Origin: an uncultured Methanosarcinales archaeon
GTDB lineage: Archaea; Nanobdellota; Nanobdellia; Woesearchaeales; DATDXC01
Direction: 5' to 3'
Assembly: GCA_964510025.1 (NCBI GenBank)
Contig: CAZDZV010000012.1
Coordinates: 1-47,504, forward strand
DNA length: 47,504 nt
Made by a program: the position numbers and the translations under genes. Below, piece by piece: positions 8,714-11,694 of this stretch (position 1 is its first letter; each line of letters starts with the position of its first letter). A model generated the notes under the pieces. That model was given only the letters and a program-made list of their open reading frames with translations, was not told the DNA's origin and ran no database searches.

Positions 8714-10372
8714 TTATTTAAAAATATGTTGGTTTGAACATATCAGTTTTTCCAGCTTGCCCTCTAATTCAGCTATCTTGACCCTTATCTGTTTTGTAGT
8801 GTCTCTGTCCCTTATCGTAACAGATTTATCCTTCAATGTGTCAAAATCAACTGTTATGCAGTAGGGAATTCCGGTCTCATCAGCCCGCGCATACCGCCTG
8901 CCCACGCTCCCAGATTTGTCATAGACAGCTGAAAAATTATTTTTAATCATCTCAAAAACTTCTTTAGCTTGCTTTTGCAGCTTGTTGACCAGCGGGAATA
9001 CAGCTGCTTTCACAGGGGCTAGCCTGGGATCTATCTTCAGAACTGCATTTCCCCTTTCCTTGTCATCATGATATGCATCGAATAAGAAGGCAAGAAATGC
9101 CCTGTCTATCCCTTGGGAGGGCTCAGAAGCAACATGGGGCACTACCTTTTTCTTCGACTCTTCATCAAAATATTCCAAGCTGGACTGCGAAGATTTCATG
9201 TGCTGCTTCAGGTCAAACTGCCCCCTGTCTGCATTGCCATGTATCTCTTTCCAGCCAAAAGGAAACCTGTATTCAATATCAAAGCATGCAGATGCATAAT
9301 GCGCTAATTCACCCTTGAGGTGCTCCCTTAACCTAAGGTTTTCCTTGTCTATCCCATAGTCAATGAAGAATTTATAGAACTGTGCAAGCCAATAGGCATG
9401 CCAAGGCGAAGCTATCTTCTTTTCTATAATGTCGTTCACAGCCACCTTGCTGTGTTCTTCATTCTTTTCCTGATTTTCAGCAGTCAGAAGCTGCACTTCC
9501 ATCTCCATCATTTTCGGCGCTTCCACACTATCAGGATTCACAAAATACTCAATCTCAAACTGTTCAAATTCCCTTGACCTGAATAAGAAATCCCTGGGGC
9601 TGATCTCATTTCTGAAGGCCTTGCCAGCCTGGGCTATGCCAAAGGGAAGCTTCTTCCTTGCCGAGTCCATCACCAATTTAAAGTTTGTAAATATTACCTG
9701 GGCAGTCTCTGGCCTGAGATATGCCCTACTGTCAGAGAAAGGGCCTACCTGCGTCTCAAACATAAGGTTGAACTTTCCTTGGTTTTCCAGATCAGAACCG
9801 CATTTCGGGCATTTCATTCCTCTATCATCATCACCTTTCATCAGGATCTTACATCCGTCGCACCTGTAGATATAGTCGGTAAAGCTGTCCACATGCCCAG
9901 ATGCCTGCCATACCTTTGGATGGGTTATGATTGTTCCGTCTATCCCCACAATATCCTCCCTGCTCTGGACAAAGGTTTTCCATAAAGCTCCCTTAATATT
10001 GTTCTTAAGCTCAACTCCTAAAGGTCCGTAGTCAAAAAAACCAGAATAACCGCCATATATCTCTGAGTTAGGAAATACAAATCCTTTCTTCTTGCAGAAT
10101 ATGGCCATATCGTTTATCGAAAGCATACTGCTGGAGATTCTCCCTGTTTTAAATAACTTTTCTTTAGGTACTACAGAACCATTTTCCTTTGATTTATTTT
10201 TAGGCCCTACATTTCTCTCAATCTGCCTGATTTTTTTCTTAATATCCTCTTTTGTAGGTCTTTTCTTGCCAAAATAAGCGATATTTTTTGATATTACCCT
10301 AGCTCCCTTTCTGATTGATTTTCGCAGATAGAAATAATCTTTTCCATTGATAGTCTTCTTGACAACATACAT
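8714..10372 (-). CDS. glyS: Glycine--tRNA ligase (homodimeric type) with an atypical 82-aa basic N-terminal extension
   Basis: FFDYGPLG, YLRPETAQ, FRNEISPR, ELAHYA, EPSQGIDR and the anticodon-binding domain; core begins at Met83 (10126). Confidence 0.95.
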   Translation of the reverse strand: MYVVKKTINGKDYFYLRKSIRKGARVISKNIAYFGKKRPTKEDIKKKIRQIERNVGPKNKSKENGSVVPKEKLFKTGRISSSMLSINDMAIFCKKKGFVFPNSEIYGGYSGFFDYGPLGVELKNNIKGALWKTFVQSREDIVGIDGTIITHPKVWQASGHVDSFTDYIYRCDGCKILMKGDDDRGMKCPKCGSDLENQGKFNLMFETQVGPFSDSRAYLRPETAQVIFTNFKLVMDSARKKLPFGIAQAGKAFRNEISPRDFLFRSREFEQFEIEYFVNPDSVEAPKMMEMEVQLLTAENQEKNEEHSKVAVNDIIEKKIASPWHAYWLAQFYKFFIDYGIDKENLRLREHLKGELAHYASACFDIEYRFPFGWKEIHGNADRGQFDLKQHMKSSQSSLEYFDEESKKKVVPHVASEPSQGIDRAFLAFLFDAYHDDKERGNAVLKIDPRLAPVKAAVFPLVNKLQKQAKEVFEMIKNNFSAVYDKSGSVGRRYARADETGIPYCITVDFDTLKDKSVTIRDRDTTKQIRVKIAELEGKLEKLICSNQHIFK

Positions 10373-10392
10373 AAGGTTATTTAGGCACTACA
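10163..10392. repeat. Three direct copies of the 13-bp motif TTTAGGnnCTACA (10163-10175, 10199-10211, 10380-10392)
   Basis: tttaggtactaca / tttaggccctaca / tttaggcactaca read directly from the sequence. Confidence 0.85.
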
Positions 10393-10418
10393 TATATATA
10401 AATATTTGGGTACATGAT

Positions 10419-11615
10419 TTACTTATTTTTTAACCACTTAATCTCTTCTTTATCTAGGTCCAGATAATCAGCAATAGCTTTAGCCATCTCCTTGTTCTTC
10501 CTGAATATCACCCTGAAATATTCTATATCCTTTATCACATCATTTGTAGAGCTATGTGTTTTTTCCCCTATCTTTGCTGCAATAGCTCTCTTTTTCAAAG
10601 ATTTTTGTTTGGCCCACCACATCTTGAGGAGCCTTCCGGTTGGTTTGTACTGGACCATCTTCTTGTATTTTTCATCCTTGCTTACAGCCACACCAGCTGT
10701 CAAAAGAGCATTTATGTAGACTAGAAATCTCCAATGCTGCCATCTTCTAATCCTTCTCCTGAATATATCTGCCTTGCTTAGCTTATCATAGGCTCTTGCC
10801 AGGTCTTCAGCTTTTTCATATTCTCTTGGAAGGTTTGCGTCTATCCAAAGAAACTGGTCATCGACATTTTCCCTTACATTATCAAATGCGGTGATGGCTA
10901 TCTTGGGATCTGTTGTCTTGAATATCCTTACCAAAGCGCTTGGCATGGATTCCTCTCTGTCCCTGTCAACCATCTCATCCAGGCTCTTAAGCTCCTTGCC
11001 GGGGCCAATAAGCATCTGCAAGTCATTGATTGCAGACCTGCAGTCACCCCCCGCCCTTCTTGCCAGGCTTTTCAGGATATCTGGCTTGTATTTTATTTTT
11101 TCCTTGTCACATATCTCCTTGAGCACCTCAAAAATAGCAGAATAGCCCATCGGCCGGAACTCCACCAAGCTGCACCTTCTTCTTAGCTTGTTGAATTTAT
11201 AATCCCATGGATTCTGGCATGTTAAAATTATTGGAAATGTGGTGTCCCCGATGAGCTTTATCAGCGCCTGTATGCCTCCTCTGTCCTTGTTGCCTGACAG
11301 GCCATCAACCTCATCTATTAGGATCAGTTTTCCTTTTGAAAACAGGCTTTGCTGTTTCACTGCAGAACCGACTTTCTGGTTTATCTGGTCCTTGTTTCTG
11401 AAGTCGCTGGCGTTTACCTCCACGATCTCTAGCTCATTATCATTGGTCAGAGCATAAACCGAGCTTGTCTTTCCGCTTCCGCTGGGCCCATATAGCAGAA
11501 GGGCTTTTTTCTTCTGTCCACCAGAAATAAATCTTTTTATCTGTTTAAGCGCCTCATCCTGTCCTTTTATCTCAGCCAAAGAGGCAGGCTGATATTTTTT
11601 TGTAAAAGGAATCAT
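10419..11615 (-). CDS. rfcL: Replication factor C large subunit
   Basis: KYQP box, GPSGSGKT, EVNASDFR, LIDEVDGL, GDCRSAINDL. Confidence 0.92.
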   Translation of the reverse strand: MIPFTKKYQPASLAEIKGQDEALKQIKRFISGGQKKKALLLYGPSGSGKTSSVYALTNDNELEIVEVNASDFRNKDQINQKVGSAVKQQSLFSKGKLILIDEVDGLSGNKDRGGIQALIKLIGDTTFPIILTCQNPWDYKFNKLRRRCSLVEFRPMGYSAIFEVLKEICDKEKIKYKPDILKSLARRAGGDCRSAINDLQMLIGPGKELKSLDEMVDRDREESMPSALVRIFKTTDPKIAITAFDNVRENVDDQFLWIDANLPREYEKAEDLARAYDKLSKADIFRRRIRRWQHWRFLVYINALLTAGVAVSKDEKYKKMVQYKPTGRLLKMWWAKQKSLKKRAIAAKIGEKTHSSTNDVIKDIEYFRVIFRKNKEMAKAIADYLDLDKEEIKWLKNK

Positions 11616-11694
11616 CTGTATGGTAAACAGTAACAACTTTATTAATCTTCTGCTAATAACAAACTTTATAAATCTGCCATAACCTCAACTGACT

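Follow-up and report, generated by a model that had tools for sequence, protein, structure and literature searches.

The question raised by this locus is why the gene of a housekeeping enzyme, glycyl-tRNA synthetase (GlyRS), should begin with a small basic module of its own, and what the three exact copies of a 13-bp motif around that module are doing there. The window, i.e. the whole 47,504-nt stretch of DNA that was analysed, belongs to genome G000. Our best model as a whole, for which we would put the probability at roughly 0.65, is that the module is a portable autoregulator and that glyS is a two-promoter gene; what we observed in its favor is co-occurrence of domain and site, promoter geometry, codon-level conservation, covariation, and the presence of the site in the ends of insertion sequences. 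The features on which the argument depends are the following.

8714..10372, minus strand: long form of glyS (ORF of 552 aa), consisting of N-terminal module, linker and dimeric (alpha2) GlyRS
10208..10372, minus strand: aa 1-55, basic three-stranded antiparallel sheet plus helix (pLDDT 92 model), putative sequence-specific DNA-binding domain
10127..10207, minus strand: linker, aa 56-82, variable and disordered (pLDDT <50 at 56-81), carrying O3, part of O2, and P2
10124..10126, minus strand: ATG of Met83, predicted leaderless start of a short, ordinary GlyRS (470 aa), from conservation of the Met and the start of unfused orthologs
10393..10402, minus strand: TATA box of promoter P1, TTTATATATA, starting 30 nt before the ATG in leaderless geometry
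10380..10392, minus strand: site O1, TGTAGTGCCTAAA, at -20..-8 relative to the ATG, flanked by the TATA box and the start, a repressor position
10199..10211, minus strand: site O2, TGTAGGGCCTAAA, in coding sequence (reads VGPK), -85 from the Met83 ATG
10163..10175, minus strand: site O3, TGTAGTACCTAAA, in coding sequence (reads VVPK), at -49 relative to the Met83 ATG and directly adjoining the P2 BRE
10148..10162, minus strand: predicted promoter P2, a purine-rich BRE-like stretch (10157-10162) and TATA box TTATTTAAA (10148-10156), in L-F-K codons
10405..10414, minus strand: degenerate half site TGTACCCAAA upstream of P1, present as letters, with nothing above the matrix threshold

The product of glyS is a dimeric (alpha2) glycyl-tRNA synthetase. 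Its enzyme part is intact, scoring 559 bits against NCBIfam PRK04173 (cut-off 312) and 513 bits against TIGR00389 (cut-off 243), with a class II catalytic core and an anticodon-binding domain (PF00587 and PF03129), and no second GlyRS was found in G000 by tblastn. The sequence-only reading had let GlyRS similarity start at about Met83, which proved correct: the ORF runs from 10372 to 8714 and the Met83 codon lies at 10124-10126. It had also reported three exact copies of TTTAGGnnCTACA (TGTAGnnCCTAAA on the gene strand), and all are found, at 10163, 10199 and 10380. When one mismatch is allowed, the window contains four matches, against a mean of 0.83 in shuffled sequence and four or more in none of 100 shuffles, and the whole 1.70-Mb genome contains four exact copies, three of them at glyS, where about 1.1 would be expected from base composition.

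The N-terminal basic beta-strand module noted earlier was recovered as a 55-aa β3-α domain in frame with the GlyRS of G000, AlphaFold2 placing strands at residues 2-8, 11-22 and 25-35 and a helix at 41-55 with a mean pLDDT of 92. It matches no Pfam family at cut-off; one domain member each reached Arm-DNA-bind_5 (E 0.014) and Arm-DNA-bind_4 (E 0.097). The predicted β3-α topology is one that AP2 and integrase arm-type β-sheet domains would have in common with it; in structural comparison, the best Z was 4.0 and the AP2/arm-type entries 6sy0 and 3jtz scored Z 3.2; these scores are at background level, so that homology is not established. Foldseek searches of PDB and BFVD gave no match at E <= 0.001, a PDB sequence search gave one chance entry only (E 1.6), the ESM Atlas returned unnamed clusters of 51-55 aa (0.92-0.93) with a DUF6788 lead at 0.79 only, and a scan of viral contigs with one solo domain protein found no relative. 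A likeness to SSV1-type integrases, which had been suggested earlier, found no support in these searches: no integrase family appears among the 120 of 356 database matches listed, and the best E in a PHROGs search was 0.024. Searches of the freely accessible literature listed no description of the domain, its site or such a GlyRS fusion.

A profile built from 11 copies of the domain has matches in 93 of the 151 genomes of the order (a tally that includes the unpublished G135 and G124), and 895 representatives remain at 50% identity. From part of a set of 200, 95 domain genes were kept of 99 distinct matches, the four dropped being two internal repeats, one bad start and one short flank. They encode 56 Fic proteins, 3 Fic fragments, 16 solo proteins (45-97 aa), 7 GlyRS, 2 PheRS-alpha, 1 GatD, 2 HydC/NuoE, 2 MNT, 1 PEP-utilising enzyme, 1 FAD oxidoreductase, 3 unknown 165-aa proteins and 1 IS1634 transposase. 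By hand count, the best 120 of 356 database matches comprise 43 DDE transposases, 15 NuoE-like proteins, 13 PheRS-alpha and 4 GlyRS, among others. The extension is in frame in the glyS of three of the four same-family genomes, and in 19 of 150 glyS matches listed from 401 genomes of the phylum (hand count; one is the unpublished G396), and a quick, unfinished tree of 55 GlyRS cores implies at least five gains or losses of the domain. A tally over loci L298-L324 is left out of these counts, its pattern having missed several domains.

G000 itself harbors three copies of the domain, each with its own site variant. Besides glyS, there is a NuoE/HydC-like first gene of an [FeFe]-hydrogenase-type operon (G000:C7, L031:1961-2554, minus strand), a type of fusion that recurs in 15 of the database matches listed and that has four upstream GTGGTA(A/G)TTA(A/G) sites in G000 (HydC variant TGTGGTAGTTAA), and a gene for a 165-aa protein of no known family (G000:C5:27905-28423, plus strand), with TCTGGTGCCTA directly after its TATA box and relatives in L090, L093 and L096. 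The module is also fused to the tRNA-handling enzymes PheRS-alpha (L073, L076) and GatD (L052), which are independent fusions with a promoter site at each. Most of the solo genes inspected (L075, L077, L078, L080, L082, L085; 45-97 aa) have two to four upstream copies of TGTAGTGCCTAA, with no upstream copy found at L085; L082 and L085 each encode two tandem domains.

The counts indicate that the domain is accompanied by a site. Of 95 domain genes, 35 have the pattern GT(A/G)GnnnnTAA in the 60 nt preceding the ATG; among controls, it occurs there in 9 of 554 genes from the same genomes and in 1 of 101 neighboring genes. With a de novo matrix derived from 48 genes (consensus TGTAGTGGCTAAC), 30 of 47 genes that had been held out scored higher than the 95th percentile of the controls, and after refinement a site was found in 73 of the 95 genes and two or more in 34, with 22 having none above threshold. 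Typically, the TATA box lies at -30 and a site at -20, and a further copy, direct or inverted, is found near -52 or -85; in glyS orthologs such as L246 and L247, a full second copy lies at about -52. A related promoter site is present in 27 of 33 fused glyS genes and in none of 26 unfused ones. The strict pattern misses six of the 33, including the same-family L004, and no site was found for hydC of L069, which has the domain; the closest unfused relatives, L005 and L006, are without domain and without site. In the reverse direction, genome contigs were searched for a TATA box followed by TGTAGTnCCTAA, and among the 116 stretches listed the domain comes directly after the site in 25 of the 30 matches with an archaeal title, in none of the 51 bacterial ones and in 14 of the 36 that are untitled. 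The training set already contained 4 of the 25. In two further archaeal matches (L129 and L165, discussed below), the site lies at the head of an operon that includes the fused glyS, and in the other three (L160 and two in L205) the domain does not follow. The earlier idea of a domain that travels with its own site thus stands on the control counts, the held-out test, the reverse scan and the comparison of fused with unfused glyS, and motif and extension co-occur in related glyS genes. We consider it very probable that the domain binds the site.

The same sequence-only reading had offered, as one option, a mini-element flanked by direct repeats, in which O1 and O2 would be recombination sites permitting excision. 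The domain is indeed bracketed by three copies in the same orientation, but the 26 unfused glyS genes do not retain even a single copy, a linker copy exists in only 8 of 40 fused glyS, and where other genes carry copies, these are confined to the promoter and often inverted. The copies also differ in the middle and number from 0 to 3 per ortholog linker. We regard this option as largely refuted. Contigs assembled from three DNA runs of one study, which drop rare variants and of which none spans the whole stretch, contained no joint between sites. In two Pacearchaeota-titled loci (L129, L165), the site heads an operon in which the fused glyS is the second gene, preceded by another, an arrangement that fits an operator and not an insertion scar, and the copies of TTTAGGnnCTACA look like putative operators, which is a better reading of them than direct repeats of an insertion.

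Alternatively, the synthetase might have acquired the domain for binding tRNA or mRNA, in which case the motif would be an RNA element; the strongly basic character of the domain and its repeated gain on GlyRS, PheRS-alpha and GatD speak for this. In G000, however, the position of TATA hexamers relative to the ATG peaks at -32..-28, so that leaderless genes are common, and O1, being upstream of a predicted leaderless start, must act as DNA; the -52 copies likewise lie upstream of the start. The site occurs in both orientations, and RNA enzymes are a minority of the carriers (of 95, 56 are Fic and 16 solo proteins), which leaves an RNA-binding role a very slim chance. A Fic subgroup (L033, L034, L042, L044, L053-L060) departs from the -20 layout: its inverted site pair at about -71/-44 lies wholly on the far side of the TATA box from the gene, and these genes may be subject to activation, or to repression at the BRE.

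The site variant follows the domain variant and not the partner gene. Similarity between domains correlates with similarity between sites (Mantel r = 0.46 over 73 genes), as it does for gene pairs on different partners (r = 0.42), with 0 of 1000 permutations as high, although these values, like the codon counts given below, overstate independence because kin share both domain and site. Thus TGTGGTA(A/G)TTAA is common to HydC and PheRS, and TGTAGTnCCTAA to GatD, GlyRS and some Fic genes. The most informative columns are residues 4, 30 and 17 of the window's domain, which, from the strand register of the model, should lie on one face of the sheet.

As to where the module came from, the resemblance to the N-termini of IS1634 transposases and Fic proteins that had been suggested earlier is supported by the profile matches. 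A profile from glyS, Fic and HydC alone found the transposases of L092 and L095, both of which pass NF033559, and those of L291 and L292 match the domain profile at E 9e-10 and 5.5e-15. A single bacterial IS1634 N-terminus was compared as well and gave no match. In L092, the inner 13 nt of the 34-nt terminal inverted repeats are TGTAGTGACTAA/CAA, and an inverted site pair lies between TATA box and ATG. Across five IS1634-like loci from 4 of 301 genomes (L092 / L289 (G005:C126) and L290-L293), which have TACCT-type terminal repeats, a site variant lies 20-35 nt inside the terminal repeats in all five (at both ends in four, the fifth having one end seen), and an inverted pair follows the TATA box in three. 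The site at the inner edge of the repeats points to a transposase origin. The simplest reading of these sequences is that the domain would be the end-binding, self-repressing domain of an IS1634 transposase, later recruited by host genes; the direction from transposase to host is not rooted, and we hold it to be reasonably likely. IS1634-family transposases (NCBIfam NF033559) are called poorly characterised in PMC4549789, and a candidate end-binding site and autorepression can now be predicted for the family. Four archaeal members share the N-terminal domain of glyS and carry the site both in the promoter and in the terminal repeats, whereas around the glyS module neither a DDE domain nor TACCT-type terminal inverted repeats were found and the three sites are direct copies.

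The part of the locus that is new relative to the sequence-only reading is a predicted second promoter in the linker before Met83. Linker sites, in one to three copies, are found in 8 of 40 fused glyS genes, and the V-x-P-K/N peptides that they encode use GTA..CCT in 17 of 17 cases against an expectation of 0.079. In the GlyRS group to which the window belongs, a Met lies 20-21 residues before the EIY motif in all 12 genes, and in all 12 TTTAAA or TATAAA, read as F-K or Y-K, starts 27 or 30 nt before this internal ATG while the remainder of the linker varies (10 of the 12 are in the GlyRS tree, L247 and L251 being too short). For comparison, the same dipeptides give such hexamers in 9 of 35 cases within the catalytic core, and such a hexamer precedes 30 of 9282 internal Met codons in G000. 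Met83 coincides with the start of unfused orthologs. All eight genes with linker sites possess P2, with the sites located between -49 and -85 relative to the internal ATG, and no linker site was seen in the 24 fused glyS lacking the internal Met or in the four others outside the group. P2 does not need a linker site, since 4 of the 12 genes (L002, L003, L004, L250) have P2 and no such site, and HydC, GatD, PheRS, MNT and the FAD oxidoreductase showed no internal promoter accompanied by linker sites. From these patterns in the sequence, we consider P2 likely to be active. A translation start at Met83 is then probably also true, and does not refute the model because the linker holds the putative second promoter.

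Two other explanations dispense with a functional P2 or with regulation altogether. In one, only P1 matters: O1 would be bound for autorepression, O2 and O3 would be auxiliary, through looping by the GlyRS dimer or as a roadblock, and P2 would be a silent relic or repressed as well. The sites are 172-220 nt apart, a distance that a dimer could bridge, and the internal Met is absent in 24 of 40 fused glyS, so P1 alone suffices in those lineages. What makes this account unlikely for the window is that TATA codons and Met keep their spacing in 12 of 12 genes where the rest of the linker is free to vary, and that linker sites exist only where P2 does, mostly at -49/-52 and -82/-85 from its ATG. 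In the other, an internally deleted IS1634 derivative inserted before glyS left behind its promoter, its first 55 codons and an end repeat, with the old glyS promoter persisting as P2 and no regulation taking place. The right-end site in IS1634 loci is oriented like the linker copies, P2 resembles an ancestral promoter of the kind seen in L008 and other unfused orthologs, and loss of the module is tolerated (L005, L006). Nevertheless, an NF033559 search of G000, which is 97.7% complete, found no IS1634 match, the module has remained open and in frame across GlyRS lineages that are only 37-71% identical, the codons of the sites are constrained, and the site stays at the operon promoter even with another gene between it and the fused glyS. 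A neutral relic is consequently quite improbable.

We therefore return to a portable autoregulator on a two-promoter gene, which could work as follows. A β-sheet DNA-binding domain from the N-terminus of an archaeal IS1634-type transposase, which would recognise its 13-bp site in the ends and promoter of the transposon, would have been fused many times to host genes together with that site, each copy with its own site variant. In the window, P1 would give the long domain-GlyRS fusion, which would bind O1 between TATA box and start and repress itself, keeping its own level low, and P2, within the linker codons, would give ordinary GlyRS from Met83. The long form would in addition bind O2 and O3 just upstream of the P2 BRE, an activator-type position, so that the amount of short form made would most likely be under its control. 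Paired sites could be served by the two domains of a GlyRS dimer, and where P2 is absent the fusion would simply be an enzyme that represses itself. Repression of P1 by the long form is probable; the glyS fusions have a conserved, promoter-overlapping site tied to the domain, as an enzyme-autorepressor should, and the earlier suggestion that GlyRS could be its own repressor is the best reading of the promoter copy O1, from its position between TATA box and start. That P2 is activated and not repressed is a guess with slightly unfavorable odds; a site placed ahead of a BRE can equally get in the way of TFB. Binding might be tuned by Gly, ATP or tRNA occupancy, although sensing of ligands through the enzyme part is speculation that we would sooner doubt than accept. 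The gene for the replication factor C large subunit (10419-11636 of the window, minus strand) ends 46 nt before the glyS ATG, and the two genes follow each other in this order in L005 and L006 as well, where glyS is unfused. Some glyS mRNA may therefore come from a third source, read-through.

Several known systems come close to this arrangement. PutA and BirA are bifunctional enzyme-regulators; in these two and in the archaeal RbkR, the DNA-binding domain is of the HTH or RHH type and stays with a single enzyme family. The glyS module would resemble all three in that DNA binding and catalysis are joined in one protein to control transcription, but it is predicted to be a β3-α domain, has no Pfam match at cut-off, and occurs on at least nine kinds of partner, each of which it is proposed to regulate in cis. 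RbkR is presented as an archaeal bifunctional enzyme-regulator in PMC5397151. Alanyl-tRNA synthetase of E. coli (AlaS) represses its own transcription in an alanine-dependent manner, according to the section of PMC13046290 that cites Putney and Schimmel (1981), and by analogy both it and the proposed GlyRS fusion would be aminoacyl-tRNA synthetases acting on DNA at their own promoter. The GlyRS fusion differs from AlaS in having a separate portable domain with a co-evolving site, in being archaeal, in its at least five gains or losses on the GlyRS tree and in its predicted second isoform. The position rule for archaeal promoters, as given in the part of PMC5937170 dealing with the Lrp/Phr repressors and the activator TFB-RF1, makes O1 at P1 a repressor geometry and O3 abutting the P2 BRE an activator geometry, hence the proposed control of both promoters by the long form; in glyS, unlike those systems, both geometries are present in one gene with two tandem promoters. 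What is new is the proposed portable, orthogonal, transposon-derived module and the predicted two-isoform circuit.

Gene regulation in the reduced DPANN archaea is, to our knowledge, largely open, and the present survey adds a previously unnamed family of putative DNA-binding domains, with a predicted site for most members, that occurs in most of the sampled genomes of the order. It points to a likely transposase domestication in archaea in which the binding site moved with the domain, to a synthetase isoform predicted to be its own transcription factor through operators in coding sequence, and to an end-binding domain and site predicted for archaeal IS1634 elements. Tentatively, and with the odds somewhat against it, one could go further and see a plug-in autoregulator of DPANN archaea, with orthogonal domain/site pairs on housekeeping genes, of which a minor long GlyRS would be the transcription factor for the bulk short GlyRS by way of coding-sequence operators and a coding-sequence TATA box, possibly sensing glycine or tRNA charging. 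The natural variants of domain and site provide a test set for a β-sheet recognition code and for small orthogonal regulators.

Some minor observations may be recorded. In L160, L205 and L221, a TATA box and site (several copies in the latter two) were seen with no domain gene found directly downstream, and these are possible targets in trans. The first gene after the site cluster in L129 and L165 is small and, by eye, ASCH/PUA-like. The fourth exact copy of the glyS-type site in G000 (G000:C3:5714-5726) lies about 27 nt upstream of the TATA box of another gene and is within chance expectation; the product of the gene downstream resembles, by eye, a gyrase or topoisomerase subunit.
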